A stretch of 64,000 bases of DNA from the IMG/VR virus record IMGVR_UViG_3300010429_002123, one strand, 5' to 3'. The notes beneath the pieces are model-generated. The model ran no database searches and was not told where the DNA came from. It saw nothing but the letters and a program-made list of their open reading frames with translations. Origin of the DNA: a virus (taxonomy: Duplodnaviria > Caudoviricetes). The translations under genes and the position numbers were made by a program. Shown one piece after another: positions 5,390 through 33,846 of this stretch. The first letter of the stretch is position 1. Each line of letters opens with the position of its first letter.

Positions 5390-5398
5390 GAGAGTATT

Positions 5399-6430: not shown

Positions 6431-6440
6431 GAAATTAACA

Positions 6441-7457: not shown

Positions 7458-7508
7458 AGATATGCTATAATTATTATGCTCTTTTAGAGAGATTAAGAGG
7501 TTTTAAGA

Positions 7509-8540: not shown

Positions 8541-8569
8541 CTATAAGGAAGGAATGTTATTTTATTTAT

Positions 8570-14465: not shown

Positions 14466-14474
14466 GTGCACTGT

Positions 14475-15278: not shown

Positions 15279-15283
15279 CAAGT

Positions 15284-15706: not shown

Positions 15707-15729
15707 ACAAATAAGAAAGGAGGCAAGAA

Positions 15730-16242
15730 ATGAAAAACCTCAGGGAAGTGAACACCATTTTAGAACAGGATTGTGAAATTCTCGAAAAAGAGATAGTAAA
15801 GGTGATGACCCTCGTGTGTGAAGGAGGTCCAGGCTCTGGGAGAAGACCTTCCGGCCTAGCTCGAAGAACTATTGTTGGAAGAAAAGCAACCACACCAGAC
15901 AGAACCCCCGATGAAACCCTGAACTTATTAAAAGATGGTCATACAGCGAATATAAAAGGTTTTACCAGAGAGCCGAGGTACTCAGAAAAAGACGGTAAGA
16001 AAAGATTTTTTATACCTCAGTACCCTGATACTCTGATGAAAGTAGGAACTGACGCAGGATTTATAACAAAAGACCCCTCGGACACTAAGAAAGGGACAAG
16101 TCGAGGAGGAAGGTATAAGGGCTGGTCTTACTGGGCTCAGCACAAAGATACTTACACAGACATGGACAAAGATGCTGTGGATAAAAAAGTGTTTCTGCTC
16201 AAAAAAGCAATTGACACTGTAACATCGAAAGGAGCAAAATAA
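15730..16242 (+). CDS. EGGPGSG-motif protein
   Basis: LEQDCEILE...VCEGGPGSGR; AGGAGG RBS. Confidence 0.55.
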   Translation: MKNLREVNTILEQDCEILEKEIVKVMTLVCEGGPGSGRRPSGLARRTIVGRKATTPDRTPDETLNLLKDGHTANIKGFTREPRYSEKDGKKRFFIPQYPDTLMKVGTDAGFITKDPSDTKKGTSRGGRYKGWSYWAQHKDTYTDMDKDAVDKKVFLLKKAIDTVTSKGAK

Positions 16243-17222
16243 TGTTAGCAATGAGGCAGTTAGAAGAAGAGTGCGGGGTTCTCGAAGCCCAGGTAGAAAT
16301 CCTTACCAAACAGTTAGAAGAGGGAGGACCAGGTTCTGGAAGGAAATCTTCTGGAGAAAACGCTTTCACAGGAATACAAAAAAAGTATGGCCTTGACGCC
16401 GATTCTATAAAAAAGGCTCAGGCTTGGAAAAAAGAAAAGAATTCTTCCGAGTCAGACGGCTTGAAACTGATAGCGAAAAGTGCTGCAAAATCAATTCTCG
16501 GACAGGCGAAAGAAAACCAGAAAGAAAAAATCAAACAGCTAAGAGCAGAATTCACCAGAAAAGCTAAAGAGATGCGTAATAAAGCGAAAGAAGAAAGTAT
16601 AGAGGCTCAAATCGAAGAGTTAAAAGAATATATAAGTTATCTTAACTCCGAACTCGCTGAGGGGGGTCCGGGCTCAGGCCGGAGACCTGGGGGAGGCTCA
16701 TCGGGCAAAAGTTCAGGAGGTTCAAAACACGGTTATGGTTGGGACACGGGTTACACCCCCTATGAAAGAAATCCGGTGGGGATAGAAAAACCTAAGTATG
16801 GTTACCATAACCAGGAAAGAAGCCTGCCTAACATGGTTGCCAGACTGTCGAGTTCTCATGGAGAAAAAGTCAATGACATAGATTCCCTTGTGAACCTTGA
16901 CATGAAAAGTCTGAAAAGAGACATTTCTCAGGGCGGGTTCGCTGCGGAAGACAAGGGGAGAGGCCACGGAGAGCACGAAGCAAGGAAAAAGTATTCAAAT
17001 GACCTGAAAAACCTCGTTAGAACCTATGAACAGGACGGGAACAAAGCTGACTTTGTGTCCAGCCTGGAAAGGCTCTCGAAAGAGTATACAAGCACAAAAT
17101 CCCCGCAGTCAAAAGGAACAAGTGCTATGGCCGACTATAAAAACGCTAAAAACAGCACATACGACCAGAGCCTTGCCCAGCACGGGAAAGAAATAGGGTT
17201 ACTTTTAAAGAATTTTAAATAA
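16242..17222 (+). CDS. Double EGGPGSG-motif protein
   Basis: Two coiled-coil+EGGPGSGR units; C-terminal domain paralogous to 20278. Confidence 0.55.
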   Translation: MLAMRQLEEECGVLEAQVEILTKQLEEGGPGSGRKSSGENAFTGIQKKYGLDADSIKKAQAWKKEKNSSESDGLKLIAKSAAKSILGQAKENQKEKIKQLRAEFTRKAKEMRNKAKEESIEAQIEELKEYISYLNSELAEGGPGSGRRPGGGSSGKSSGGSKHGYGWDTGYTPYERNPVGIEKPKYGYHNQERSLPNMVARLSSSHGEKVNDIDSLVNLDMKSLKRDISQGGFAAEDKGRGHGEHEARKKYSNDLKNLVRTYEQDGNKADFVSSLERLSKEYTSTKSPQSKGTSAMADYKNAKNSTYDQSLAQHGKEIGLLLKNFK

Positions 17223-17251
17223 ACTCAAATAATGAGAACAAAGGAGGACGT

Positions 17252-17821
17252 ATGAACAACATACAGAACATTCAAGAAGAAATAGTAGAGATAAATAAAG
17301 AACTTGCCCAACTGGCCGAAGAAATTGGTGTTGCCGTTGAGCAGAGGAGACAGGAATCTATAGAGAGCCTTGAAGAAGAAGTTGTGGTCTTAGAAGACCT
17401 TATAAAAACCCTTGAAGAAGGTGGTCCCGGTTCCGGTAGAAGACCTGGGGGTGGGATAAGAAGGAGAGTAGACTCTGCAACAGCAAAAAATCAGGACTGG
17501 AAAGATAGAATAAAAGACCATGCGATAGACTATGCAAAAAGAGCGTTGGACATGCATTCTACTTCGAACAGCTCAAAAGAAAATAACAGAATTAAACTGG
17601 CAAATGCCTTAGCCAACTTTAGTGCTTTTGACGACGAGATAAAACCCAAGAGCACTCTCAAAAACAAGCATTATGACGCCTATAACGTCCATGCCTCTCA
17701 TCTGGGAGACGCTTTTAAACGGGGAAGTGACTCTAATGACTCTCTGGCAAAAAGCCTAAAAGGCAGACTTGACAAAGAAACCCCAAAAAAAGTTGATTAT
17801 CACGACTTTAATAAATACTAA
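17252..17821 (+). CDS. EGGPGSG-motif protein
   Basis: Acidic coiled coil, then LEEGGPGSGRRPG, then a basic domain. Confidence 0.55.
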   Translation: MNNIQNIQEEIVEINKELAQLAEEIGVAVEQRRQESIESLEEEVVVLEDLIKTLEEGGPGSGRRPGGGIRRRVDSATAKNQDWKDRIKDHAIDYAKRALDMHSTSNSSKENNRIKLANALANFSAFDDEIKPKSTLKNKHYDAYNVHASHLGDAFKRGSDSNDSLAKSLKGRLDKETPKKVDYHDFNKY

Positions 17822-17837
17822 GAAGGGAGAATGAAAA

Positions 17838-18770
17838 ATGTTTGGTTTAGACGACAAACTTTCAGAACTCATTTTAGAACAGGTAGTCTCTGATGTAATC
17901 TTAAAACCCGCAAAGAACTTAAAGAAAAAGGAAGTTCAGCCAGATTCAGAGAAACCGACGGACAAAAAACCCTTAGAAAAGACAAAACTCATAGATAAAA
18001 AATGCGTTGAGGCAAGCATTGTTTCTACTATCGAAGAAGTGCTGAGGGAAGAGGGGATAAACCCCACAAAAACTCTTACCTCGTTCATCCTCACCAGACT
18101 TAAAGAGGAAACTGCTCCCGCTAAATTTATGCGAAAAAGAGCCAAGTCAGCTCTCGAACAGGAGGTAACAAAAACTCTCCCTAAAGATGATACGGTTCAG
18201 AAAATAAGTATAAAACCCGTTCCTTCCGGGAAAGTGCGTGCTCCAGGAGGAGTAAACCAGTATGTGCCCAGAGATACAGAAATGCCTTCTGTTACTGTAG
18301 CTATAATCACGGGAGAGAAACTTGGTAAGAAAAAGATGATTGATAAAAAAGTTGAAGAAAGCCTGAAGCCTTCCCATTTCTCCGGGCAAGCCGGAGTAAG
18401 AAACCCCGGGGCTCTGGCTGCGTATCTCGGAAGAAAAAAGATGGAACGAGAACACGGCACAGAAGAGGGGGCAAAAAAGTTTAAAGAAAAGGTAATGTTT
18501 GGCCAGAAAAGAAGTAAACACGAACAGGACTTCTCTGATAAGCTAGAAGCCGGTGAGCACATAACAACCCCTCCCGGTTTTATTCCCCCGGACAAACGAA
18601 CTCTCTGGATGGACACATGGAACACTGTTTACGACAGACAACTCTCCAAAGGAAAATCAGCCCAGCAGGCAGAAATCGTGGCTTACTCTGTGGCCACTAA
18701 AATGGTTCAGGACAGTCTCCCCGGAAAAGCCTTTAAGGAGGACAGAGAGTGTCTTACCAGAGTAGCTTAA
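17838..18770 (+). CDS. Hypothetical head-associated protein with C-terminal ChaB-like domain
   Basis: WMDTWNTVYD...AEIVAYSVATKMV resembles ChaB helices; also RNPGALAAYLGRKK. Confidence 0.45.
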   Translation: MFGLDDKLSELILEQVVSDVILKPAKNLKKKEVQPDSEKPTDKKPLEKTKLIDKKCVEASIVSTIEEVLREEGINPTKTLTSFILTRLKEETAPAKFMRKRAKSALEQEVTKTLPKDDTVQKISIKPVPSGKVRAPGGVNQYVPRDTEMPSVTVAIITGEKLGKKKMIDKKVEESLKPSHFSGQAGVRNPGALAAYLGRKKMEREHGTEEGAKKFKEKVMFGQKRSKHEQDFSDKLEAGEHITTPPGFIPPDKRTLWMDTWNTVYDRQLSKGKSAQQAEIVAYSVATKMVQDSLPGKAFKEDRECLTRVA

Positions 18771-20224
18771 AACTTCTTCTTTCAAAGAAAAAGTATAATA
18801 ACTTAAAAGAAAGTGGTTCTCCCGGTATGCAGTGGGGCTTTACAAAAGGCCAGCCGAACGGCGGGAGAACCGCTAAAAAGCCGGAACCTGAAGAGTATAA
18901 AAGTAACGTCATAGACAGCGTGCCTTTAGAGTATAAGGCCGTTATGGACGACCTAGTGAAAGCGGGGCATAAATCTTATTTTGTAGGGGGAGCGGTTCGG
19001 GATACCATTTTAGGAAAACCTCCAAAAGACTGGGACATCACAACAAGTGCTCCCGTTGAAGAAAGTGTTAAAGTCCTTGAGAACCTCGGAACCGTCTTAG
19101 GAATTGGCCAGCAGTACGGAATAGCTATAGGGACAATAAACGGAAAACAAATAGAGGTGGCCTCGTTTAGAAAAGACCTGGGTTACTCAGACAAAAGAAG
19201 ACCGGACGAAGTGATAACCCGGGGGGTCTCCGAAGAAGAAGACGTCCAAAGAAGAGACTTCACCATGAATGGTCTCCTTATGGACTTAAGGGGGAATATA
19301 AAAGACTATGTCGGAGGTATAGACGACCTGAGTAAGAAAATTATTCGCTTCATAGGAGACCCTGATGCCAGAGTAGCTGAGGATAGTATAAGAATGCTCC
19401 GAGCAGTAAGGTTTGCAACACGTTTTGACTTTAATATAGACGAAGACTCCCTGGAAGCCATAAGAAGAAACAGGCAGGACATCTATAATACCTCCTACGA
19501 GCGTATCAGAGACGAACTGGACAAATCTTTCGGTAAAAACCCTCAAAAGGCTGTGGAACTCTTACAGCAGACCGGCTTAGACAAAACTCTCTTCGGAGAA
19601 CTAAACCCTAAAGATTTCCCGAAAACTGTAGAGTCAACTGCCATAGTCTGGGGGAGTTTACTTTCAGATAAAGGGCTGGAGACTTACAAACTTCCTGTGG
19701 GCGTAAAAAAGACTGTCAGCACTATTAAAAAGCTGGGGGAGGACTACGAGAACGTCTCCGATGACCCTATAGAGCGGAAAAAATTAAAAATAGCCATAGA
19801 GAAAGTGTTACCCGTAGAAGAATTTGATAAGTTTTTAAAAATGGCTGGTAAAGAGCAGAAATTTAATTTAAAATCTATAAAAGTCCCTGAGGATACTACT
19901 CCTCTGGTTCAAGGAAAAGACCTTATGAATCTGGGAAAGAAACCCGGAAAGAACTTTTCTGACCTATTAAACAAAGGGTATAGTATGCAACTTCAGGGAA
20001 AAAGTAAAGAAGAAATTTTGAACATACTAAGGAATGAAGGTGTGGGTTACTCTACACTTCTAAAAATAGAAAACCTGTTAGATAAGCGGGAGTGGCTCAA
20101 TGAGACCTTAAAGACTGGCACACAAAGAGGTTATTCCCGGCTTTATGCAGACACCTTGATACAGGAATGTGAAATGCTTGACCTTTACGCAGGGGTAGTA
20201 ATGACTCAGTTACTGAGAAGGTAA
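18749..20224 (+). CDS. cca: CCA-adding tRNA nucleotidyltransferase (class II, CCA/poly(A) polymerase family)
   Basis: VGGAVRD..LG..PKDWD, RRDFTMN, EDSIRMLRAVRFA, ERIRDEL, GKDL..G.KPG. Confidence 0.9.
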   Translation: MSYQSSLKLLLSKKKYNNLKESGSPGMQWGFTKGQPNGGRTAKKPEPEEYKSNVIDSVPLEYKAVMDDLVKAGHKSYFVGGAVRDTILGKPPKDWDITTSAPVEESVKVLENLGTVLGIGQQYGIAIGTINGKQIEVASFRKDLGYSDKRRPDEVITRGVSEEEDVQRRDFTMNGLLMDLRGNIKDYVGGIDDLSKKIIRFIGDPDARVAEDSIRMLRAVRFATRFDFNIDEDSLEAIRRNRQDIYNTSYERIRDELDKSFGKNPQKAVELLQQTGLDKTLFGELNPKDFPKTVESTAIVWGSLLSDKGLETYKLPVGVKKTVSTIKKLGEDYENVSDDPIERKKLKIAIEKVLPVEEFDKFLKMAGKEQKFNLKSIKVPEDTTPLVQGKDLMNLGKKPGKNFSDLLNKGYSMQLQGKSKEEILNILRNEGVGYSTLLKIENLLDKREWLNETLKTGTQRGYSRLYADTLIQECEMLDLYAGVVMTQLLRR

Positions 20225-20277
20225 AGATTCGAGACGCTATGTAAGAAAATAGTAAGTACAAAAGGAGGAAAAGACGA

Positions 20278-20850
20278 ATGAAAAGGCTGAACACAGAAAT
20301 AAGAAAACTGGAAAGAGAATGTGACTTCTTAGAGGGGCAGGTTGCCGAAGTTATGCAGTATTTATGGGAAGGTGGACCAGGTTCCGGGAGAAAACCGGGA
20401 GGACATGGCTATGGTCATGATTCAGCAGGAACACCTAAGTATGGTTTCCACAACCCGGAGCGTAATCTCCCAAACGCTCTTGCTATAGCTTCTAACCGGT
20501 TGGGCTACCTTGTCAACGGGGCTGACAAAGACTATGAAAAAGAAAAAACAGCCATAAAAACTGGTAAGTCCTCGGACTATTACAAAGGATTCGTGCATGG
20601 GGAGCACAAGGGAATGAGACAATTCACAAATGACCTGAAGGGTCTTGTTCAAGATTACGAGAAGAACGGAGATGAGAAGGGTTTAAGAGACAAAGCTCAC
20701 GCCCTTGCTAAAACCTATGATGACACTCCTGAGTTCTCTTCACCCGGAAAATCTGGCTTAGACGATTATAAAAATGAAAAAGGAAAAGGGTATAAAAGCC
20801 AGTTAAGAGCTCACAGTGATGAATTGAAAGGTATTTTAAAACGCTTTTAA
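20278..20850 (+). CDS. EGGPGSG-motif protein
   Basis: LERECDFLE...LWEGGPGSGRKPG; paralog of the 16242 C-terminal domain. Confidence 0.55.
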   Translation: MKRLNTEIRKLERECDFLEGQVAEVMQYLWEGGPGSGRKPGGHGYGHDSAGTPKYGFHNPERNLPNALAIASNRLGYLVNGADKDYEKEKTAIKTGKSSDYYKGFVHGEHKGMRQFTNDLKGLVQDYEKNGDEKGLRDKAHALAKTYDDTPEFSSPGKSGLDDYKNEKGKGYKSQLRAHSDELKGILKRF

Positions 20851-20862
20851 GTCCGTAAAACA

Positions 20863-20892
20863 AAAAGGGACTGGTTTTAACCAGTCCCTTTT
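20863..20892. terminator. Bidirectional terminator
   Basis: AAAAGGGACTGGTT-TT-AACCAGTCCCTTTT between convergent genes. Confidence 0.8.
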
Positions 20893-20901
20893 CATTTGAT
20901 T

Positions 20902-21171
20902 TTACCACCGGAAAGACTCAGCCGGGTCATATTCGAACACTTCATCAAACTGAGCCTTGTGACTCATTCCGTCTTCAAAGTCACAGTCCATATTTTCACA
21001 TATGTCGAGGATTTCTTCTATTGAAGAGTCAGTCATATCGTTACAGAGGATTTCTCTGATAATGTCTTCCTCGAAGTCCCAACCGTTTTCTTGGACGTGT
21101 TTTTCTGCCTGCTCGATTTCCTCGATGGTGAATGCATTCTTTATCATTTCATTTATAAATTCCTGTGTCAT
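20902..21171 (-). CDS. Small highly acidic protein (candidate DNA mimic)
   Basis: 27 D/E vs 5 K/R in 89 aa; AGGAGG RBS, own promoter and terminator. Confidence 0.6.
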   Translation of the reverse strand: MTQEFINEMIKNAFTIEEIEQAEKHVQENGWDFEEDIIREILCNDMTDSSIEEILDICENMDCDFEDGMSHKAQFDEVFEYDPAESFRW

Positions 21172-21229
21172 GTTGTTTTCCTCCTTTTATTGAGGTCTTT
21201 GGCCTGCCTGACCTCTTTCTCACATTCTT

Positions 21230-21283
21230 ATAATAGCATAACTTAATATACTTGTCAATACTTTTTGTAAAAATAAGTTAACT
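21230..21283 (-). promoter_or_regulatory. Conserved early promoter (minus strand)
   Basis: Reverse complement reads AGTTAACTTATTTTTACAAAAAGTA-TTGACA-17-TATTAT with extended TG. Confidence 0.8.
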
Positions 21284-21300
21284 ATTTTTTAGGGAAAAGA

Positions 21301-21354
21301 AGTTAGCTATTTTTTACAAAAAGGCTTGACAAGTAAAACATCTTGTGCTACACT
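21301..21354 (+). promoter_or_regulatory. Conserved early promoter
   Basis: TTTTTACAAAAAGGC-TTGACA-17-TACACT with TG. Confidence 0.8.
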
Positions 21355-21413
21355 TTACAGAGTGAAAGAACCGTGAAAAAGACTCCTGTCAGTAAAAGGA
21401 GAAAGTTTACCGA

Positions 21414-21468
21414 CACAAAAAGGAGTTTTGTTAGCACAAGAAGGATTTTTGTTAACACAAAAAGGAGG
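21414..21468 (+). repeat. 21-bp imperfect tandem repeat in 5' leader
   Basis: CACAAAAAGGAGTTTTGTTAG / CACAAGAAGGATTTTTGTTAA / CACAAAAAGGAGG. Confidence 0.6.
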
Positions 21469-21475
21469 AAGAGAA

Positions 21476-23293
21476 ATGGTAGCAACTATAAAAGAAAACA
21501 TGCCTGCAACCCTCAGAAAGATTAGAAAAGGACTGGTATTTGACCCGGACAGTGTCTGGAAAGAACTCTTTCAAAACGCCTTCAGGGCTCTTGCAAAAAC
21601 TATAGAGATAGACCTCGAGGCTGATTCTATAACAATGATAGATGACGGTGTAGGTTTGGATAACCCTGAAGTTCTTTTTGAAAAGTCCACTTCAGGGTGG
21701 ACAACTGACGTGTGTAATCCCTACGGAGAAGGTCTCTTTGCTGTGTTTTCAGTAGCAGAGGAGATAGTTATACAGTCTAAAGACTGGTTTGTTCACATAG
21801 ACGTAGAGGAGATTCTCCTGGACGAAAGTCTGAGATACAGTATAGAAAAATCAGAAGAGTTCATAAACGGGTTTAAAATAACTCTTCGAGGAGAAGAAAT
21901 ACGAAAAAACTGGACTTCTATTTATACAGAGGTAGAGACACTGGGTGCCGTGTGTAAGCAGGAGGTATTCTTAAATAAACTTCCCATAGCAAAAAAAGAC
22001 CTGTTTGCTCTTCCTAAAGCAGACTTTGTTTACAAAGTAGAAAACTCTTCTTTTCGAGGAAACCTTGCTCCAGAAAGAGGCTGGGAAGATATACACGTTT
22101 ATTTTGAAAACCGATTTGTCTGTGAATGCTGGGTTGGAGGTCTTTCTGGAGTGATAGAACTTGTCAACGGAAATGTCGTAGACTTAAAAGCCCCAGACAG
22201 AAAGGCCATTATTCAAAATGATAAATACTGGACATTCATGGACCTTTTAAAAGAAGAAAAAGAAAAAATGTACAGGGCTTTTGTCGTAGCCAGACCGGAC
22301 TTGTTACATTTATACTCAGAAAAGATAGCTACTACCCTCAAGGTAAAAGATTATGTAAGGCATTTGACTTTTGAGGAGGAAGTTTTTAATACCAAAAAAC
22401 TCTTAACGGGTATAGAAGACCTTTTTCAACAAATGACTGACCTTACCTCTGAACAGGTAGAAAGAAGAGTAGAAAAAGCTAAAGTCGAGAAGATGGAGAC
22501 AATAGAAGAGCCCCAAAAACTTCTGGATAACTGCTATTCTGAAAACAGAGAAGAAGAAGACTACTCTCACGTAGTGCCTCTCGTGGTGTCCGAAGAAGAG
22601 AGAAAGGAAAAAGAAATTGAAAAGAAAAAGATGGAAAAAAGAAAAAGTGCGACAGTATTAAAGAGAATAAAAAAGAACCCGCAAAAAAAGATATTTGTAA
22701 AGGCTTCCGAAGCCACAGAGTATAAGGCTATGATAGCTGAATTAGAGTATTACGGGTATACAGTGTTAGTAGCCCAAAATGAACTTTATGCCTGTGCCTT
22801 TGAGGAGTTTGGTATAACTAGCATAAAATCTGTTGGGAAAGAAATAGAAAAAGCCAATAAAGTAACCGACGTAGCTGTAAAAAACCATAAGGAAAGAAGA
22901 ATTATCTATCTCTTGTCTTTTATTGAAGATTATTATAAAATAGGAGATGTATTCAGGATAGGTAAACTTGAACTTGAAATAAGAACGACTATCCTGGGAA
23001 AAACCAATATAGAAAAACAAAAAGTGCTGGGTCTGTGCGATAAAGGTAAAATTTATCTGGACAGAACTGGATTAGAGTATATAGAAAGAACCGATGGTTC
23101 GACTTATGGTTACAGAAACGTTGAGTATGTAGGACTTTCTTTAGATGACTGGAAATACATACCTTTTTTACTCCAGACAGTATCCCATGAACTGGCACAC
23201 TTACTGAAGAACACTAAGGATAATACAGTTGAGCATTTTAAAGCGGAAAACCAGATAAGAGAAGAGTTATTAAGAATGTTTAAAAGGAGGTAG
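21476..23293 (+). CDS. GHKL (HATPase_c) ATPase with C-terminal HExxH motif
   Basis: KELFQNA, IDDGVG and YGEGLFAVF GHKL motifs; C-terminal SHELAH...H; AGGAGG RBS before ATG 21476. Confidence 0.75.
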   Translation: MVATIKENMPATLRKIRKGLVFDPDSVWKELFQNAFRALAKTIEIDLEADSITMIDDGVGLDNPEVLFEKSTSGWTTDVCNPYGEGLFAVFSVAEEIVIQSKDWFVHIDVEEILLDESLRYSIEKSEEFINGFKITLRGEEIRKNWTSIYTEVETLGAVCKQEVFLNKLPIAKKDLFALPKADFVYKVENSSFRGNLAPERGWEDIHVYFENRFVCECWVGGLSGVIELVNGNVVDLKAPDRKAIIQNDKYWTFMDLLKEEKEKMYRAFVVARPDLLHLYSEKIATTLKVKDYVRHLTFEEEVFNTKKLLTGIEDLFQQMTDLTSEQVERRVEKAKVEKMETIEEPQKLLDNCYSENREEEDYSHVVPLVVSEEERKEKEIEKKKMEKRKSATVLKRIKKNPQKKIFVKASEATEYKAMIAELEYYGYTVLVAQNELYACAFEEFGITSIKSVGKEIEKANKVTDVAVKNHKERRIIYLLSFIEDYYKIGDVFRIGKLELEIRTTILGKTNIEKQKVLGLCDKGKIYLDRTGLEYIERTDGSTYGYRNVEYVGLSLDDWKYIPFLLQTVSHELAHLLKNTKDNTVEHFKAENQIREELLRMFKRR

Positions 23294-23298
23294 CTCGA

Positions 23299-23739
23299 AT
23301 GCTGGGAAAGTTTAAGAAAAAGATATATGACGCCAGAATACGTTTCGGAGACGAAAGTTACTTCATCATAGATACGTTAAAGGAACCTATAAATATAGAG
23401 GGTATTTTTCCTCAGACGGGTGAGAAACTGGGAACTTATCTAATAAGGCTAAAAGAGGTTTCGAACGCTTTGGAACTCAGACTGGCTCGCAAAATATCGA
23501 GTGCGGAACCTTTTATGATAGCTTCTGAAGAGTTCTCTTCTCTTTTAAATTACAGAGTTTTCACCAGACTGATGATAAGAGCTAAAGACATGACCTCCTT
23601 AAGGTGTGCAAATGACTTGACTTTTCATGGTATTTCGAAAAGTCATTTCAAATTAAGGGACACTTACTTTAAAATAGGTTTAGAAGTAGAAATAGTAGGA
23701 AGAGCCCCGGATGAAAAAGATGTATGTGTTTACTTTTAA
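23299..23739 (+). CDS. Hypothetical protein
   Basis: AGGAGG RBS, in operon. Confidence 0.5.
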   Translation: MLGKFKKKIYDARIRFGDESYFIIDTLKEPINIEGIFPQTGEKLGTYLIRLKEVSNALELRLARKISSAEPFMIASEEFSSLLNYRVFTRLMIRAKDMTSLRCANDLTFHGISKSHFKLRDTYFKIGLEVEIVGRAPDEKDVCVYF

Positions 23740-23770
23740 GTAGAAAAATTAGAGAGGAGAAAGAGCCGAT

Positions 23771-24076
23771 ATGAACAGTCCGTATAACGAAGAAGGTTAC
23801 CAGAAGCAGTTCTTAAAAGCCTGTGAAAGATTACCGAAACAGATTCCTTTTCTTCATGAAGAGAGAGAAGGAGGTTATTTCTACTTAGCGTTCTTACTTC
23901 CCTTTTTCCCGCAGCCTTTGGAGGAGACCCGCATGCAGTTAATAAGAGAGCTGGCACAAATGATGCAGGAACTGGAAGAAAAGGACGAAATAGACCTTGA
24001 GGAGTTGGAGGTGCTGAAGGGAATAAAAACTCCTATTGCTTCGGAAGGGTATTCTGTGGCTTTTTCTATGAGTTAG
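23771..24076 (+). CDS. Hypothetical protein
   Basis: ORF in operon with RBS. Confidence 0.45.
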   Translation: MNSPYNEEGYQKQFLKACERLPKQIPFLHEEREGGYFYLAFLLPFFPQPLEETRMQLIRELAQMMQELEEKDEIDLEELEVLKGIKTPIASEGYSVAFSMS

Positions 24077-24123
24077 AGTCTTTTTAGAACTAAAAATTTT
24101 TGTTAATGAAAAGGAGAAAACTT

Positions 24124-24426
24124 ATGAAGTGCTTAAGTCTTTACTCGGAATACATAGAGGAGATACTTTCCGGTGAAAAAACGGAGGAATATCGCAGTTG
24201 GAAAATATCCTGCCCACAGGACATATTGTTGGTAGGTAGCAAGTCCCCCCGTGGGAAATACTCCGGGTTAGGTGCCTGTATTGTGCACGTATCAAGGATA
24301 GAAGGACAAAAACCTAATTACGATTGGATTTTGGAAAACGTACGACCTGTGGAGCCTTTTCCAGTAAAGGGAAAGCTCGGCCTGTATGAAATACCCGATA
24401 ATCTTATTCGTCTATTAAAAGACTAG
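24124..24426 (+). CDS. ASCH (PUA-like) domain protein
   Basis: MKCLSL...I.SGEKTEEYRSW...W.LENVRP..PFPVKGKLGLYE signature. Confidence 0.85.
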   Translation: MKCLSLYSEYIEEILSGEKTEEYRSWKISCPQDILLVGSKSPRGKYSGLGACIVHVSRIEGQKPNYDWILENVRPVEPFPVKGKLGLYEIPDNLIRLLKD

Positions 24427-24525
24427 TTTACACAGAAAGCGAAATATGATAAAATAAAGGAAACTGACCCGATAGACTACCTATAAGGTGGTCTTTCCTA
24501 TTTTAAAAAGAAAGGAATTGATAGA

Positions 24526-24960
24526 ATGGCTGAACTTAAGTATACTACGAAGAAAACCCCTGAGCAGTTAGAAAAAGAACAAAAAGTATTTGCGAAAAAG
24601 TATCCGTATGGGGAAATTTTAAAAGACTATCACAGACTCCAGAGGTCACTGAAGCCGAGCGAAAGAGATTACTTAAAAGACACAAGAGATGCCCTGAAAC
24701 CTCTCGCCTCTTCAAATAACAGGGAGGAAGTAGCCTCCGCTCTCGCCGCAACCACAGGGGCTGCAGCCTGGCTGAAAAGACGCATGGACGAAGCCGATGG
24801 AAAAACCGTTACCCCCGCTTCATGGGACAGGGTGGCCGAAGAAACAGAAAAGCTGACAAAATCTCTGCTGGCCGGAAACCGAGACATAGAAAGTATGAGA
24901 GACGAACTCAAGTGGAGACTGAAAACAGCATGGCATAAAGGTGGACTCGTAGGGAGCTAA
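24526..24960 (+). CDS. Small protein with Gly-rich C-terminus (…GGLVGS)
   Basis: ORF with RBS; first of a five-gene cluster. Confidence 0.55.
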   Translation: MAELKYTTKKTPEQLEKEQKVFAKKYPYGEILKDYHRLQRSLKPSERDYLKDTRDALKPLASSNNREEVASALAATTGAAAWLKRRMDEADGKTVTPASWDRVAEETEKLTKSLLAGNRDIESMRDELKWRLKTAWHKGGLVGS

Positions 24961-25008
24961 ATCACATCATATTCAAATATTAAAATTAAAAGAAAGGCGG
25001 GAAAAAAC

Positions 25009-25338
25009 ATGGCAGATACAGCGACAGCTCCAGTTAATGCTACAATCAGAAACCCAAAAGGTCTGAATCCTTCGGACGTAAGGGACATGAACAAGTACAC
25101 CAAGTATTATAACAAAAAGCAGAAACTCATCGGTAAACTCGCAAGAGAAAATGCTCTTATGCAGGTAGAAAAAAGCCCCTCAAAGAAGCCGAAGATGGCT
25201 GCCTCCGAAAGAGCCAGACTTTTCAAAAAAGATATGTGGGGACAAAGTCTAAGAACCCTTGAAAATTACGCAAAATTACCACCCGCAGAACGGGCAAGAA
25301 CACCTTTTAAAGACGTTGCGGCAGTAGGAGGGGGTTAA
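25009..25338 (+). CDS. Small basic protein ending …AVGGG
   Basis: Lys-rich; C-terminal GG. Confidence 0.55.
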   Translation: MADTATAPVNATIRNPKGLNPSDVRDMNKYTKYYNKKQKLIGKLARENALMQVEKSPSKKPKMAASERARLFKKDMWGQSLRTLENYAKLPPAERARTPFKDVAAVGGG

Positions 25339-25342
25339 GTAA

Positions 25343-25699
25343 ATGGCGAAATCAGTGGGAGATATACTCAGAAAGTTAGTTTCAGACAGGGCTAAAACTC
25401 TGGACAAAACTTACGATAAAAAATACCCGAACGCAAATAACCAGTCAAAACAGGACAGAACACAGAGAAATATAGATATACTAAAATCTATCTCAAACGC
25501 AAGAAGAGCAGGAAAAGAACTAACCCCCAAAGACCTCGCTTACATGGTCTGGGACGCTTCGGCCAAAAAGGGAACCGGTTGGCACGGAGCTGACGGGCGA
25601 CCTATGACAGCAGATAAGATTGAAAACCTTATAGCAAGTGACATGGCAAAGGCTGGTTTACGCTCGCCCGATTCCGCCAGTGGTGGAACCGGGGGTTAA
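25343..25699 (+). CDS. Small basic protein ending …SGGTGG
   Basis: C-terminal GG. Confidence 0.55.
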   Translation: MAKSVGDILRKLVSDRAKTLDKTYDKKYPNANNQSKQDRTQRNIDILKSISNARRAGKELTPKDLAYMVWDASAKKGTGWHGADGRPMTADKIENLIASDMAKAGLRSPDSASGGTGG

Positions 25700-25720
25700 G
25701 CAACAAAGGAGGGACATGCA

Positions 25721-26161
25721 GTGGCCACGTATATAGGTTCAAAAATGCCCAAAGGAAGGGCTACTCTCTCTAACAAAGACATCTTAAAAGCCGTGCAGAA
25801 TATGATAAAAGAGAAAGATAGACAAGATGTGAGAAGGTGGGGAGAACCTGACGAGCAGGACAAAAAATGGAACAAAGAAAGAGATAAAAACATAAAGGAC
25901 GCCTTAGGTAAACTCTCCGGTAAGGTCTCTGCTGAAGACGCCTTGAAACGGCTTGGGGGACTCAAAAAACAAGAAGTTTCTCCCTCACTGTTTAAAGATG
26001 ATTACCTTTATAAGGGCTCTCCTTATTTCGATAAAGATGAGTTAGGATACTTAAAAGACGAGATAAGAAAAGTAGAGACAAGGAAGACTCTTGACTATCA
26101 GAAAAAAAGGGAAAGAGCAATGACCCCGGATATGTTTGGAAAAAGCGGGTCAGGAGGCTAA
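25721..26161 (+). CDS. Small basic protein ending …SGSGG
   Basis: Paralog of 26256 (KTLDYQK.RERAMTPDMF). Confidence 0.6.
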   Translation: MATYIGSKMPKGRATLSNKDILKAVQNMIKEKDRQDVRRWGEPDEQDKKWNKERDKNIKDALGKLSGKVSAEDALKRLGGLKKQEVSPSLFKDDYLYKGSPYFDKDELGYLKDEIRKVETRKTLDYQKKRERAMTPDMFGKSGSGG

Positions 26162-26255
26162 TAGTAGACCATAGGAATCTTTTTTTAGATATGGATTCAA
26201 TCTTAAACAACAGAACTTCTGCCCCGACAGGGACAGGAGGTATAGGAGGTTAAAA

Positions 26256-26669
26256 ATGCCCACATATTATGGAGGAAAAACTCCCAACAAACGAGTAGCT
26301 TTAAACAAAAATGAAATAATGAAAGCTGTTAAGGCTGTTTTAAAAAAAGAATATGACGACGAGGATAGATATTCTTCCCCGGACAAAGAAACTTTAAATG
26401 ACCGTAAGGAAAGAGAAAAAGGTCTAAGAAAGAAAATGGATTCTCTTTCTAAAAATCCCTCCGTTGAAGAGATTACCTCTGCTCTCTCCAACGTAAAAAT
26501 GAAAGATATAGTCGGAAGAGGTGAATCTGCCTTTTTTACAAAGGGGGAGTTAAAAGACGTTGAGAAAAAAATAGGACAAGCAGAAGTTAAAAAAACTCTT
26601 GATTACCAGAAAGCAAGGGAAAGGGCGATGACTCCTGACATGTTTGCTGTGGGTGGGTCAGGAGGATAA
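26256..26669 (+). CDS. Small basic protein ending …GGSGG
   Basis: Paralog of 25721; AGGAGG RBS. Confidence 0.6.
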   Translation: MPTYYGGKTPNKRVALNKNEIMKAVKAVLKKEYDDEDRYSSPDKETLNDRKEREKGLRKKMDSLSKNPSVEEITSALSNVKMKDIVGRGESAFFTKGELKDVEKKIGQAEVKKTLDYQKARERAMTPDMFAVGGSGG

Positions 26670-26671
26670 GT

Positions 26672-27448
26672 ATGATAAATTTATGTAGACTATCTGAACA
26701 GGTAGAGATACTTGAAGAGATGGTAAGTATTTTAGAAGGGGGTCCTCCGAAAGACGGAGGACCCGGCAGTGGGAACTATGAAAGGCGCAAGCAGTATGAC
26801 CCGGAAACTCAGGAAATGGTTGATTTTTTAGGCAAGGTTGTGGGGGGAGCACTTGACTCCTCTCTTAACCCCCGTGACTTCGCTCACACGAAACATTATG
26901 TACCTCCTGCCCTGAAAGCTCACCGACTGGAGGCTCTTGATTTCGCAATGGCGTTCTGGCAAATGCAAAAAGAAGACAAGCCAAGTATAGATAACTTTTA
27001 TGCCAATGCTAAAAAGAACACAGAAAAATTCACAAAAGACAACATGTCTCAAGATGACCTGCTCGACCGTCTTGCAAACGCTAAAAAATTCATAGTCGGA
27101 GAGAAGTTTACTGCCCGACAGGAAGACACACCCGAACAAAAAGAGCTTCGAAAGATTGACCGCCTGCTGGCGAGCAAAGACCCTATTCCTTACTCGATAG
27201 CTCTCGGACGGCTTAGCAAAGAAGGGGGAACACGCCTAAGAGACACTGGAGACCCCAAGAAGGAGCAACATCTCGACTTAAAAGCTATTGACGCTATCAC
27301 TGCAGAAAAGAATTATAATCTGAGAAACTTCCCTCACAGAAAAGACCCTTCTCCCTACTACAATGGCCTTACCAAACAGTTAGTTACCAGGGTAAAAGAA
27401 AGAGCAGAGAAACACGGAATTTCAGTTAAAAAAGCAGATTATGAATAG
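26672..27448 (+). CDS. EGGP…GGPGSG-motif protein
   Basis: LSEQVEILEE...LEGGPPKDGGPGSGNYER. Confidence 0.55.
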   Translation: MINLCRLSEQVEILEEMVSILEGGPPKDGGPGSGNYERRKQYDPETQEMVDFLGKVVGGALDSSLNPRDFAHTKHYVPPALKAHRLEALDFAMAFWQMQKEDKPSIDNFYANAKKNTEKFTKDNMSQDDLLDRLANAKKFIVGEKFTARQEDTPEQKELRKIDRLLASKDPIPYSIALGRLSKEGGTRLRDTGDPKKEQHLDLKAIDAITAEKNYNLRNFPHRKDPSPYYNGLTKQLVTRVKERAEKHGISVKKADYE

Positions 27449-27473
27449 ACTCTAAACAGACAAGGAAAACTTT

Positions 27474-28241
27474 ATGACAAAATTGCAAAAAGCTAAAGAC
27501 CTTCTAAAAAGCATCGAGAGCACGGAGGTTCTCGTTGCTTTCTCCGGTGGAAAGGACTCCATCGTAACTCTCGACCTGTGCTGTGAAATGTTCGAGCGGG
27601 TCGAAGCGTTTTACATGTATATAGTTAAAGATTTAAACTTTGTTAATTCCTTTCTCGACCCTCTGGCAGAAAAGTATGAGATTAAACTCCACAGAGTTCC
27701 TCACTATATTCTGTGTCAGGCTTACAAGCTGGGACTCTACACAATAAATTACTCTTTTCAGGAATCTGAACTGAGGCTCAGTGACGTAGAGACTTACATA
27801 AAGGCCAAAACCGGGATAGAATGGATTGCCAACGGGGCAAGAAAAGCGGACAGCATCGAAAGACTCGCTATGCTTTCAAACAATGGGGGGATTGACCGAA
27901 ACACTCACAAGGTATATCCCATAGCTGAGTGGAAAGCTGAAGATGTCCGCAGTTACCTGAGGTTAAGAAACCTTCCTTTGCCGGAAAATCAGGGGAAGAA
28001 AATGTCCGGGGTTGACCTCTGCCCGGAAACTCTCTGCTGGATTCAGGAAAACCACCCTTCAGACTTTGAAAAAATCAAAAACATCTTTCCTTTCGTGGAA
28101 GCTCCTGTGAAACGAAAAGAGTTTTTGCTAAAGCGGGGGGAGAGTGTCCCAGTCCCAGTTGACCCCCCGGCTAAGAAGAAGCGGGGGAAGAAGAGTCTTG
28201 ACAAGACCAACACCCGCGTTGAGGATAAGACTCTGGCATAA
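27474..28241 (+). CDS. PAPS reductase-like PP-loop adenine nucleotide hydrolase
   Basis: VAFSGGKDS PP-loop, G.RKADS..R, YPIAEW...DV..YL. Confidence 0.8.
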   Translation: MTKLQKAKDLLKSIESTEVLVAFSGGKDSIVTLDLCCEMFERVEAFYMYIVKDLNFVNSFLDPLAEKYEIKLHRVPHYILCQAYKLGLYTINYSFQESELRLSDVETYIKAKTGIEWIANGARKADSIERLAMLSNNGGIDRNTHKVYPIAEWKAEDVRSYLRLRNLPLPENQGKKMSGVDLCPETLCWIQENHPSDFEKIKNIFPFVEAPVKRKEFLLKRGESVPVPVDPPAKKKRGKKSLDKTNTRVEDKTLA

Positions 28242-28595
28242 ACTGCAGGGAAGAGCGTTTGCTATCTTCTCCCTCTTTTCCAAGTCATACCCCGCTATAT
28301 AAAGAACAGCTCCTATTGTCTCTTTTCTTCCCGCGTGAAGCAAGGCATTTGCCTCAGCATGGCAGGAACCACACAAATCATATCTTTCTCCGGGGGGTAT
28401 GTTTCTTTTTTGCCTCTCACAGTAACCCAGGTCGATGCAGTTAGTCTCTCCTCTGGGTCTCCCGTTATAACCTGTGCTTATTATGTTATCATCTTTTACT
28501 ATTATGGCTCCGTATTTTCTCCGAAGACACGTCGAACGTTCATAGACGGCCTCCGTTATATTAAAATAGTATTCATCTTTCGTTAGTCTTCTCAT
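28128..28595 (-). CDS. dCMP deaminase (ComEB-like)
   Basis: RSTCLRRKYGA, TGYNG, HAEANA, PCSLC. Confidence 0.9.
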   Translation of the reverse strand: MRRLTKDEYYFNITEAVYERSTCLRRKYGAIIVKDDNIISTGYNGRPRGETNCIDLGYCERQKRNIPPGERYDLCGSCHAEANALLHAGRKETIGAVLYIAGYDLEKREKIANALPCSLCQSLILNAGVGLVKTLLPPLLLSRGVNWDWDTLPPL

Positions 28596-28807: not shown

Positions 28808-29698
28808 ATGAAAACATACAAAAAGACCGAAAAAACAGAAAACAAGGAGACCGTTGCTGACAAAATCACAGCTAATATAATAGCTGAACTGGAAAAAGGA
28901 AACTTAGCTTGGAGCAGAAACTGGACTGGAACCGCCCCGACAAATGCCATGTCAAAAAAAGAATACCGTGGTATAAACAGACTGAACCTGATGCTGGTAG
29001 GTATGGACAAAGGTTTCCAGAGTCCATACTGGATGACTTACAACCAGGCAAAAGACCTGGGCGGTAATGTCATAGCAGGCTCTAAAGGCTCACAAGTAAT
29101 ATACTGGAAAGTCCTCAAATATGACAAAATAGACGAAGAGACTCAGGAAGTCTCCTCAAAGTCAATACCTTATATGAGATATTCCACAGTATTCAACCTT
29201 GACCAGATTGAAAACATCGACAAAACAAAGTTCGAGACCAAGAAAACACAAGTAAACCCTGTGGAAGAGGCCGAAAAAATCATAAGAAATTATCAGAATG
29301 GTCCAGCTATCGAGTTCGGGTGTTTCAATCCGTGCTACAGACCCGCAACAGACGAAGTCAAAATGCCCGCTATAAATGCGTTCAACAGTGAAGAAGGTTA
29401 CTACTCAACAATGTTTCACGAGCTCGGTCACTCGACAGGACATGCAACAAGACTGAATAGAGAAGAAGTCGTAGGAGTAAACTTCTTCGGTAGCCACAAC
29501 TACGCGACAGAAGAGTTAGTAGCCGAGTTTACAAGTGCTTTCTGCTGTGCAAGCTGTGGTATGTCTAATGAAAAAGTCATTGAAAATCAGGCCGCATATG
29601 TACAAAACTGGTTAAAAGTCTTAAAAAATGACAGAAAAATGGTCATAAATGCGGCAGCCCGTGCAGAAAAATCTTACGCCAGAATACTCGGAAGGTAA
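28808..29698 (+). CDS. ardC: ArdC-family antirestriction ssDNA-binding protein with zincin-like domain
   Basis: YRGIN, WMTYNQA...GG.V..G.KG, VFNLDQ, YYSTMFHELGHSTGH..RL.R, YA.EELVAE, AAY..NWL. Confidence 0.9.
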   Translation: MKTYKKTEKTENKETVADKITANIIAELEKGNLAWSRNWTGTAPTNAMSKKEYRGINRLNLMLVGMDKGFQSPYWMTYNQAKDLGGNVIAGSKGSQVIYWKVLKYDKIDEETQEVSSKSIPYMRYSTVFNLDQIENIDKTKFETKKTQVNPVEEAEKIIRNYQNGPAIEFGCFNPCYRPATDEVKMPAINAFNSEEGYYSTMFHELGHSTGHATRLNREEVVGVNFFGSHNYATEELVAEFTSAFCCASCGMSNEKVIENQAAYVQNWLKVLKNDRKMVINAAARAEKSYARILGR

Positions 29699-32140: not shown

Positions 32141-33055
32141 GTGAGAAGAATGTTAGAGTTTTTAGTTGTGGATAACAAAGGGAAGTTTTATATTACAATA
32201 CTGGACAAAGACAATTATGAGGAACGTATGAGCAATCTGCTCATCAACGGGCACCCCCCGGAGAAGACTTATAAAGAAGACTGGTATAAAATTAATAATT
32301 TCCCGGAGTATGTGATGAAAAGAACCCCTGATAAGACAGTGCAGACTTTCTGGGAGTTAAAACCTGCCTACGCTACAAATACCTCTTTTCCTCAGACTGT
32401 CTACTCTGAGGAGGACTTTGCCGAAGAACTTCTTGATGCGTGTTATGACATTAAACGGGTAGTTATTCCCGGCGAATACGTGGGGGTAGAGTTTACTGTA
32501 AAAGAAACAATATTTGTAGACGGGGAGTTTAATGTGCAAAAAGCAAGAGGCAACTATCAGCACCACCTGATTGACCAGATACAGACCCACTCAGATTTGC
32601 TCTATTTAAAAAAGTGCTTTATATCCCAGGAGGAGAGCTTTAAACGCATAACAAAATACTTCAAAGAGAACTTAGACTTTAAACAATGTGATGCTCTCTT
32701 TTACGAAGCCTCCCTGTCAATTGTGGTTAGAAAAAAGCTATACTATTACTTGCCCGTTGAGTTCCGAGTCACGAGAAAAAAGGGAAGGAAATACAAGACA
32801 GAATTGCAAATAAAAGACCACGAAGTTCGTGAGGTCTTTAGACTGGAAAAGGGAAACCTTTTCTCTTTCACGGGAGAAAACGAAGAGGACTTAGAAAAAA
32901 ATATCAAGAATTATTGCAAAGAGATTGTGGACTTCTTAAATACCCCGGCGGAAGTCTGCACAAGTTGTGACGGTGTGGGTTACAGACTAAAAAAGATAAC
33001 CCCCGAAGGCAAGCAGGAAGACATAGTAAGAAATCATGACGTGTTTTATCATTAG
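32141..33055 (+). CDS. Hypothetical protein with C-terminal CxxCxGxG motif
   Basis: 304-aa ORF; CTSCDGVG. Confidence 0.55.
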   Translation: MRRMLEFLVVDNKGKFYITILDKDNYEERMSNLLINGHPPEKTYKEDWYKINNFPEYVMKRTPDKTVQTFWELKPAYATNTSFPQTVYSEEDFAEELLDACYDIKRVVIPGEYVGVEFTVKETIFVDGEFNVQKARGNYQHHLIDQIQTHSDLLYLKKCFISQEESFKRITKYFKENLDFKQCDALFYEASLSIVVRKKLYYYLPVEFRVTRKKGRKYKTELQIKDHEVREVFRLEKGNLFSFTGENEEDLEKNIKNYCKEIVDFLNTPAEVCTSCDGVGYRLKKITPEGKQEDIVRNHDVFYH

Positions 33056-33078
33056 ACCATAAGAAAAGGAGCTTGGCT

Positions 33079-33846
33079 ATGAAAAAAGATGCTATAGGAA
33101 CCCGAATGAAAGAAAACTATGAAGAAAGGTATAGGTTCAAATTACTCAGAAGAACCCCTGTCATTCTTCGACTTGACGGGAATGCCTTCCATACCCTCTT
33201 GAGAAAAAGTGTGAAACCCTTTGACGAGGGCTTTTCTCTGGTGATGGAAAAAACAGCTCACACTTTATGCCAGAAAATTCAAGGAGTAAAATGCTGTTAC
33301 GTACAGTCAGATGAGATGTCTTTTCTTCTGACTGATTATGACCGGTTAGAGACTTCGGCGTGGTTTGATTATAACGTCCAGAAGATGGTAAGCATTTCAT
33401 CAGGTATGGCCTCGGTTACGTTTTCTGCCCTGTTTGACAGGCCAGCAGTATTTGACGCCAGAGTTTTTAATCTTCCGAAAGAGGAGGTTAATAATTATTT
33501 TGTCTGGAGACAGAAAGATTGGATAAGAAACTCTATCTCTATGCTAGCCCGTGCTCATTACTCTGATAAACAGGTCTTTAAAAAGGGAAAAAAGGAACTT
33601 CTCGACATGCTGGGTGAAAAGAACATTCACTGGGAACTTCTCCTCGACCGGTGGAAGTATGGCGTGTTCGTAGAGAGAAAATCTTCTGTAGACCCCCTTA
33701 CGGGCTCTCCAGGAAGCCACTGGGAAACGCTTACACTTTGCCCTATTTTTACGGACAAGAAGGAGACTTTAGAAAAGTATCTTTCAGAAAAACCAGAGAA
33801 AGGAGAGGGTAGCAACCTACCTGAAAACCCAGATGAACATAACTGA
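33079..33846 (+). CDS. thg1: tRNA(His) guanylyltransferase Thg1-like protein (3'-5' polymerase)
   Basis: RMKENYE, ILRLDGNAFH, YVQSDEMS, AWFD..VQK..S, FDARVF, NYFVWRQ.DW.RNS. Confidence 0.9.
   Translation: MKKDAIGTRMKENYEERYRFKLLRRTPVILRLDGNAFHTLLRKSVKPFDEGFSLVMEKTAHTLCQKIQGVKCCYVQSDEMSFLLTDYDRLETSAWFDYNVQKMVSISSGMASVTFSALFDRPAVFDARVFNLPKEEVNNYFVWRQKDWIRNSISMLARAHYSDKQVFKKGKKELLDMLGEKNIHWELLLDRWKYGVFVERKSSVDPLTGSPGSHWETLTLCPIFTDKKETLEKYLSEKPEKGEGSNLPENPDEHN

Follow-up and report, generated by a model that had tools for sequence, protein, structure and literature searches.

What function could join five consecutive genes for small proteins with Gly-rich C termini to an ASCH-domain gene on one side and, on the other, to a gene for a PP-loop enzyme resembling 3'-phosphoadenosine-5'-phosphosulfate (PAPS) reductases? 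The arrangement lies at positions 24124-28241 of a stretch of 64,000 nucleotides (hereafter the window), which is part of the IMG/VR virus record IMGVR_UViG_3300010429_002123 (Caudoviricetes; 183,650 bases, estimated to be 78% complete). By genome comparison, we show here that a C-terminal Gly-Gly tail of this type occurs almost only beside this enzyme, usually in apparent translational coupling with it. We propose, at a probability of roughly 45%, that a widespread phage module of four parts is present here in divergent and expanded form, and that the PP-loop enzyme of this module activates the Gly-Gly end. The parts of this module would be a PP-loop ATP pyrophosphatase (IbrA-like), a ParB-like (IbrB-like) protein, an ASCH protein, and one to five small, basic, fast-evolving proteins.

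Five small proteins with Gly-rich C termini

The five small genes, all on the plus strand, encode basic proteins (isoelectric points (pI) of 9.4-10.2) of 144 amino acids (24526-24960, ending in ..HKGGLVGS), 109 amino acids (25009-25338, ..AAVGGG), 118 amino acids (25343-25699, ..SASGGTGG), 146 amino acids (25721-26161, ..GKSGSGG), and 137 amino acids (26256-26669, ..AVGGSGG). The third and the fifth fit the tail G-G-x-G-G-COOH of the wider family described below, and the first, in which two residues follow the Gly-rich tail, is a possible member. An earlier sequence-only reading of this DNA had listed these open reading frames (ORFs), their C termini, and their ASCH and SGGKDS-containing neighbours, and all are present as described. 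It had also noted only two obvious paralogs among them; indeed, the 25721-26161 and 26256-26669 proteins alone are related (39-42% identity), and the other small ORFs share no BLAST similarity. The best-conserved block of this pair consists of the last ~30 residues (KTLDYQK.RERAMTPDMF..GSGG).

Across the whole 183.6-kb record, 5 of 233 ORFs (greedy calling) end in Gly-Gly, and four of these five are the consecutive genes of the window. With about one such end expected at a Gly content of 6.4%, the pattern exceeds chance. Identical copies were assembled from three other samples, where independent gene callers give the same genes. Genes identical to those of the window are also found on contigs of up to 234 kb, which identifies the phage as a jumbo phage. 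No substitution pattern can be derived from the close copies L002 and L003, which show 100% identity, and no DNA similarity to this phage was found among GenBank phages.

None of the tail proteins matches a Pfam, PHROG, or NCBIfam family, and their GenBank label is "hypothetical". For the 26256-26669 protein, neither a word-indexed search of 5.8 billion clusters nor a profile hidden Markov model (HMM) search of 1.84 billion representatives retrieved homologs beyond its own lineage. A scan of IMG/VR returned no close relatives of the 25343-25699 protein and no homologs of the 24526-24960 protein. Because the window's tail proteins as a set are without homologs in the word-indexed, profile HMM, and IMG/VR searches, conservation of the tail was examined in a Lactobacillus-phage family instead. 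An AlphaFold2 (AF2) model of the 26256-26669 protein is all-alpha, with predicted helices at residues 18-39, 44-62, 70-78, and 96-125 (predicted local distance difference test (pLDDT) 69), and its tail, residues 126-137, is modelled as disordered.

Linkage of Gly-Gly tails to the enzyme in other phages

Approximately 100 homologs of the enzyme (roughly 220 amino acids, 35-54% identity) were available for comparison. A single-protein scan of IMG/VR with the window's enzyme gave no match; 30 homologs were aligned, and the alignment was used to retrieve 80 IMG/VR loci. Counts by distance or strand refer to the 71 loci in which the enzyme ORF was located. A Gly-Gly end is present in 42 of the 1414 called ORFs of the 80 loci, and nearly all of these ORFs are small, lie on the enzyme's strand, and adjoin the enzyme gene. 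Small called ORFs with this end number 41/608 within 3 kb of the enzyme compared with 3/335 farther off. When stop-to-stop frames of at least 30 amino acids within 3 kb of the enzyme were considered, a C-terminal G..GG terminated 56 of 3037 frames on the enzyme's strand, but none of 4602 on the opposite strand. At least one G..GG end is present in 35 of the 71 loci.

In related loci, some tails carry one or two residues past the Gly-rich stretch (..GGKGN, ..GSGQ, ..NAGS). Enzyme clades without a strict GG end (L053, L060, L074, L081, L076, L005, and L030) retain, upstream of the enzyme gene, a small ORF whose product is rich in Arg and ends in a Gly-rich tail such as ..RRLRRG, ..LGMSSG, ..FGLSTG, ..GGSNG, ..GGGGGSGQ, or ..GGKGN. 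Since these clades still carry Gly-rich tails, the terminal residue can vary or may be processed.

The reverse survey proceeded from the tail to the enzyme. All 2.9 million IMG/VR contigs were searched with a degenerate DNA pattern that encodes RRKS.GG.GG plus a TAA stop, and 31 places matched. The enzyme gene immediately adjoins in 28 of the 29 places with enough flanking DNA, and a ParB-like gene usually comes next after the enzyme. The same pattern was found in 58 places among 185,579 prokaryotic species, each represented by one genome. In 18-19 of these the motif ends an Arg-rich ORF, in every case with the enzyme, in prophages of Clostridia, Megasphaera, Bilophila/Desulfovibrio, Bryobacteraceae, Moraxella, and Haemophilus; the remaining matches are nearly all short or non-coding chance matches without the enzyme. 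Tail and enzyme are thus associated whichever of the two is taken as the starting point, and across phyla. The proposal of a link between tails and enzyme had been staked on homologs retaining the terminal glycines and their linkage to the enzyme, and it withstood both the strand count and the reverse scan.

Consensus and families of the tail

Sixty distinct tails give the consensus [RK]-N-x-[AYF]-R-R-K-S-x-G-[GS]-x-G-G. RRKS is conserved at positions -10 to -7. At least five BLAST-unrelated protein families carry this tail and have nothing else in common, and several loci hold two to four different ones. A typical partner is an Arg-rich protein of 32-88 amino acids with a median pI of 12 and the end RN.[FY]RRKS.GG.GG, the stop codon of which touches or overlaps the start codon of the enzyme. 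Larger Gly-Gly-tailed proteins of 92-167 amino acids, with tails such as K.GSTGS[RK]GG, KRSSFGSKGG, or STGHSGG, occur two to four per locus in other loci, including that of Lactobacillus phage JNU_P7. In one family, ..SFGSKGG is kept in more than 20 homologs at 60-97% identity.

One Gly-Gly-tailed family, of 92-99 amino acids, is found in Lactobacillus phages and prophages, where its gene immediately precedes that of the small terminase (L040:6566-6844, L039:8219-8518, L041:8685-8960, L050:8985-9266, and P0099-P0125). Its N-terminal MA[KQR]QLDLF is invariant, and QLDLF resembles the beta-sliding-clamp-binding consensus, QL[SD]LF. Internal R.NR.TG repeats in this family are like those of the short Arg-rich peptides.

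GGAGG read in frame encodes Gly-Gly, and for this reason the tails were checked at the DNA level. The terminal two Gly codons in 40 relatives are GGT (33), GGC (23), GGA (16), and GGG (8). In the window, three of the five small genes are followed by spacers of 21, 49, and 95 nucleotides; the 21-nucleotide spacer, after 25343-25699, contains a separate Shine-Dalgarno (SD) sequence (AAAGGAGGG), and the 95-nucleotide spacer follows 25721-26161. We rejected an origin of the tails as a by-product of SD sequences, since each of the four Gly codons occurs, the conserved motif reaches nine residues upstream, and behind many tails there is either a spacer with a separate SD sequence or no gene. Codon usage and the tails without a following gene start also show that the tails are selected at the protein level. 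The surveys thus establish selection for a free Gly-Gly end on small basic proteins that are not otherwise related, and a tie of this end to the enzyme.

ASCH and ParB-like partners and position in the phage genome

The ASCH gene of the window (24124-24426, plus strand; PF04266, E 2e-5) encodes 100 amino acids from its ATG or 108 from an upstream TTG. Its inclusion in the arrangement, as first suggested, is well founded, and the ASCH protein is a conserved module member across related loci. Homologs of the window's protein are encoded within a few kb of a PAPS-reductase-like gene in at least 33 related loci (phmmer, E down to 5e-21), and 63 of 106 loci contain an ASCH gene at a distance of 4 kb or less.

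In approximately 75 of 80 related loci, a ParB_N-like protein (phrog_620/9353) is encoded directly downstream of the enzyme. The generic PF02195 model gave no ParB match in this phage. A profile built from the partners in related loci matches G000 8106-8927 (minus strand, outside the window) at E 3.6e-71, with phmmer E values down to 5.5e-46. A ParB-like (IbrB-like) partner therefore exists here, about 83 kb from the enzyme gene, unlike in most relatives, where the two genes are adjacent. The 258-amino acid gene immediately upstream of the enzyme (26672-27448) was considered as a hidden ParB partner and rejected (hhalign probability 0.2). In Lactobacillus phage JNU_P7 (L115, MN830256), the ParB-like partner at 4959-5657 is annotated as two coding sequences of 103 and 109 amino acids; the gene may be split, or a frameshift or sequencing error may be responsible.

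In siphoviruses of ~40 kb, the module is flanked on one side by the gene for a late regulator of the ArpU type and on the other by the genes for the small and large terminase subunits, which suggests late expression. This position bears on an alternative offered by the sequence-only reading, namely that the tails are decoys for host ubiquitin-like antiphage systems. By imitating the C-terminal glycine of the host's ubiquitin-like proteins or of cGAS/DncV-like nucleotidyltransferases (CD-NTases), they would jam E1-like antiphage enzymes of the host (Bil, or Cap2 of the cyclic oligonucleotide-based antiphage signalling system (CBASS)), with no part played by the phage PP-loop enzyme. A C-terminal Gly-Gly and the anti-defence genes nearby are all that speak for such mimicry. 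It fits poorly with a tail that is found almost only beside the PP-loop gene, in strict synteny and translational coupling with it, in phages from hosts of many bacterial phyla. The conserved motif moreover extends to RRKS, unlike the tails of ubiquitin-like proteins, and the siphovirus module lies among late packaging genes, not early anti-defence genes. We consider the decoy explanation very improbable.

The PP-loop enzyme and its predicted contact with the tail

The enzyme gene (27474-28241, plus strand) encodes a PAPS-reductase-like PP-loop ATP pyrophosphatase (IbrA-like) of 255 amino acids (PF01507, E 1e-14; phrog_424, E 1e-20). SGGKDS is invariant in 30 homologs, and the alignment shows S24, G26, K27, and D28 to be invariant. 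The best Foldseek neighbours of an AF2 model (pLDDT 87) are adenylating PP-loop enzymes, namely TilS, TtuA (including TtuA-TtuB, 5gha), NcsA, adenosine-5'-phosphosulfate (APS) and PAPS reductases, and LarE; the likeness to TtuA is at the level of the general PP-loop domain only (template modelling (TM) score 0.45-0.49). Cysteine C36 is the only near-invariant one in the 30 homologs, and there is neither a dyad nor a cluster. A CysH-type C-terminal catalytic Cys (ECGLH-type) is absent from the last 55 residues, and none is conserved in the alignment; cysH models score far below threshold (TIGR00434, 30.6 bits compared with a cut-off of 165). The lack of this Cys and the sub-threshold scores led us to reject the usual "auxiliary metabolic gene" annotation as an assimilatory PAPS reductase (CysH type). 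The 3' end of the gene (28128-28241) overlaps a convergent dCMP-deaminase gene (28128-28595, minus strand) by 114 nucleotides and encodes a basic C-terminal extension modelled at low confidence.

A structure prediction of the enzyme together with the tail had been proposed as a check. It was run with the window's enzyme (with its alignment), ATP, Mg, and residues 95-137 of the 26256-26669 protein. The interaction prediction score from aligned errors (ipSAE) was 0.32 compared with 0.00 for the best control, but the three runs (0.32, 0.00, and 0.39) disagree and share at least 0% of contacts, with a partner pLDDT of at least 41; the verdict was "weak support". In the calibration, the mark was reached by 58 of 80 solved complexes, compared with 2 of 110 mismatched pairs, and scores of 0.60 or less comprise only 7 of the 80 solved complexes together with both passing mismatches. 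The functional tie between tail and enzyme that had been postulated is partly supported: the genetic linkage is conserved in both directions, but the small protein, as modelled for 26256-26669, does not have a ubiquitin-like fold, and the predicted complex is weak.

These results must be weighed against a non-covalent role, in which the Gly-Gly-COOH tail would dock the PP-loop/ParB enzyme to DNA by means of targeting heads (Arg-rich DNA binders or a clamp-binding head). The enzyme would modify the DNA, for example at the backbone or a base in the manner of DndC/SspD, and would at no point activate the tail. The C-terminal tail of the single-stranded DNA-binding protein (SSB) provides a precedent for a docking peptide. 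Diverse heads with a common tail would be expected of such adaptors, and the median pI of 12 of the short peptides, the invariant N-terminal QLDLF of one family, which resembles the clamp-binding consensus, and the weak predicted binding between enzyme and tail are all compatible with it. DndC/DndB, moreover, is a PAPS-reductase-like/ParB-like pair that acts on DNA (PMC10853773). By contrast, the motif ends exactly at a free carboxylate with two glycines, a hallmark of tails that enter an active site, and the enzyme has one near-invariant Cys only, without the cysteine dyad or the Fe-S cysteines of DndC. The computed results presented here fit docking and activation alike. Overall, we regard docking without a covalent step as unlikely, but as the main rival of activation.

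Possible activation chemistry and comparison with known systems

If the Gly-Gly end is activated, as we favour, the free terminus would be the element recognised by the enzyme module, and the tail would enter the PP-loop active site as the Gly-Gly tail of TtuB enters TtuA. The terminal carboxylate would be adenylated inside the PP-loop enzyme and then passed to a nucleophile. Carboxylate adenylation by PP-loop enzymes is known from asparagine synthetase, NAD synthetase, and QueC. Transfer could yield either a conjugate joined by an amide bond or a thiocarboxylate that donates sulfur. For a conjugate, we favour DNA as the target, given the Arg-rich or clamp-binding-like heads and the ParB-like and ASCH partners. 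Since the siphovirus module lies between the late activator and the terminase genes, it would probably act shortly before packaging, on DNA that has been replicated or on components of the virion. Gene content is compatible with adenylation followed by conjugation, with thiocarboxylation, and with simple docking.

In a more specific version, the module would be an E1-independent tagging system. The enzyme and the ParB-like protein would adenylate the Gly-Gly terminus and join the small proteins to phage DNA or other targets before packaging, and the ASCH protein would read or amidohydrolyse the adduct. Joining to DNA would amount to peptide-DNA hypermodification or end protection. In this full form, we consider the proposal rather unlikely.

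The region shares with the IbrA/IbrB (Escherichia coli YbdN/YbdM-type) cassette the same enzyme family (PF01507, phrog_424) and a ParB_N-like partner (E 5e-46 here). It differs from the cassette in the 83 kb that separate the pair in this phage and in the increase to five tail proteins. We found no description in the literature of a Gly-Gly-tailed third component or of an ASCH protein in an IbrA/IbrB-type cassette. In full-text searches, a Gly-Gly tail in connection with a phage PP-loop or PAPS-reductase-like enzyme was not described, and related papers do not mention one. There is a real chance that the region represents a new kind of C-terminal activation system.

In tRNA thiolation by TtuA/TtuB, and similarly by Ncs6/Urm1, a PP-loop ATP pyrophosphatase takes the C-terminal Gly-Gly tail of a small protein into its active site. 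TtuB has a beta-grasp fold and a separate E1-like activator, and TtuA contains an Fe-S cluster, whereas the proteins considered here are predicted to be helical or disordered, with no E1 and no Cys cluster. The same holds in comparison with ubiquitin-like and ThiS/MoaD carriers, with which the C-terminal Gly-Gly is shared, but neither the beta-grasp fold nor the E1-like enzyme (ThiF/MoeB). Specifically, E1-like PF00899 has no match at E≤0.1 in the 183.6-kb record, which is 78% complete, and controls match in 14 of 14 genomes.

An SGGKDS PAPS-reductase-like enzyme together with a ParB-superfamily protein, with DNA as the target, is also found in DndC/DndB and in SspD. Dnd and Ssp systems are not known to contain Gly-Gly-tailed small proteins. 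The enzyme described here differs from DndC and SspD systems in having no cysteine dyad or Fe-S motif. Limited scans of neighbouring genes revealed no homologs of DndA, DndD, or DndE, and the few neighbours scanned with Pfam in three related loci showed ASCH, ParB, and terminase only. DndC/DndB and SspD act on DNA in phosphorothioation (PMC10853773, PMC12839542).

Pup/PafA and LysW/LysX resemble the putative module in that the C-terminal carboxylate of a small, largely disordered or non-beta-grasp protein is activated by ATP and joined to an amine. Their ligases are glutamine-synthetase-like or ATP-grasp enzymes acting on a terminal Glu, whereas here the enzyme is of the PP-loop type and no match to a Pup ligase (PafA/Dop, PF03136) was found in the phage record. 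Pup-type tails end in GGQ or GGE, compared with GG in the window.

Phage "PAPS reductases" are routinely annotated as auxiliary genes of sulfur metabolism (for example, bioRxiv 10.1101/2021.07.29.453957). For the IbrA/IbrB-type enzyme family, the Gly-Gly-COOH tail is the first concrete, testable candidate for a substrate or cofactor. Coupled tails are present in phages of Firmicutes, Desulfobacterota, Acidobacteriota, and Gammaproteobacteria, with Lactobacillus phage JNU_P7 and the Lactobacillus reuteri prophage LR1 as cultured carriers. Adenylation of the tail, if true, would mean that protein C termini can be activated by a new route, distinct from those of the E1, PafA, and ATP-grasp enzymes; a new kind of DNA or virion modification may also be involved.

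Possible place of the window's genes in the module

Several points weigh against our reading of the window as an activating module. The RRKS patch is absent from its tails, strict G..GG is present in two of the five, and all five proteins are orphans, so that what would link them to the canonical family is confined to the tail, synteny, and the orthologous enzyme and ASCH protein. The gene directly upstream of the window's enzyme lacks a Gly-Gly tail, and the ParB-like gene is far away. About one-half of the enzyme loci have no strict GG end, many of them having Gly-rich tails that end in a single G or in one or two further residues. The upstream ORF of the nearest enzyme homolog (54% identity) is likewise non-GG; the nearest homologs, P0003 and P0004, are on contigs of ~1 kb, where the single visible upstream ORF does not end in GG, an observation of little weight. 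The complex prediction, being weak and inconsistent among its three runs, raises the odds only slightly. No member of the PAPS-reductase clade is known to adenylate a protein C terminus, and a strictly C-terminal motif can also fit a non-covalent docking peptide.

Given that the window's tails are degenerate relative to RRKS.GG.GG and the proteins are orphans, it is a minority possibility that the five are lineage-specific small basic proteins unrelated to the Gly-Gly partners, with tails that are merely flexible or partly encoded by ribosome-binding sites. They could, for example, be virion-internal or DNA-condensing proteins in the neighbouring cluster of tagged cargo, or early anti-defence proteins. 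In line with this, they adjoin the EGGPGSG-tag cluster described below and the anti-defence genes ArdC and Gad1, and two of the five tails overlap a plausible SD sequence of the next gene (GGAGG before 25343 and 26672). Yet the consecutive Gly-Gly-ending genes account for four of the five such ORFs in the record and are placed between orthologous ASCH and PP-loop genes. Their layout is as in JNU_P7 and its relatives, with two to four Gly-Gly-tailed proteins of 92-167 amino acids, and the C-terminal block is the most conserved part of the two paralogs. We judge a lineage-specific origin to be improbable.

The tagged 258-amino acid protein and neighbouring genes

The gene at 26672-27448 (plus strand), between the tail genes and the enzyme, encodes a protein of 258 amino acids with an N-terminal leader and ILE-GGPPKDGGPGSG close to the N terminus; we refer to the latter as the ILE-GGPPKDGGPGSGN tag. 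The protein has no Pfam, PHROG, or NCBIfam match. The EGGPPKDGGPGSGN tag recurs in this genome, in 18 proteins, but does not occur in any of the related loci. Eight of the tagged proteins are encoded in the window at 14466-27448, and ten, of 380-516 amino acids, at G000 166602-183396, outside the window. The tag is located 25-140 residues from the N terminus, where a helical leader is followed by [ILV]-x-E-GGPGSG(R/Q) or L-x-EGGPPKDGG.GSGNW.RH. Because it recurs here and is absent from related loci, the tag family is independent of the Gly-Gly module and lineage-specific. Probably, the 258-amino acid gene was inserted between the tail and enzyme genes and is no component of the module; the tag could be a protease or capsid-targeting tag.

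Flanking genes encode a CCA-adding enzyme (18749-20224), an ArdC-like antirestriction protein (ArdcN and metallopeptidase; 28808-29698), a homolog of the anti-Gabija protein Gad1 (32141-33055), and a Thg1-like tRNA-His guanylyltransferase (33073-33846), in what looks like an anti-defence and tRNA-repair neighbourhood. Farther upstream, at 4367-8540 of the window, there are four tandem paralogous ORFs of ~340 amino acids each, at least one with a Kelch motif (PF01344, E 8e-10). Eukaryotic Kelch propellers such as KLHDC2 read C-terminal Gly-Gly degrons. The presence of Kelch ORFs near Gly-Gly proteins is probably a coincidence, and these ORFs may encode receptor-binding proteins.

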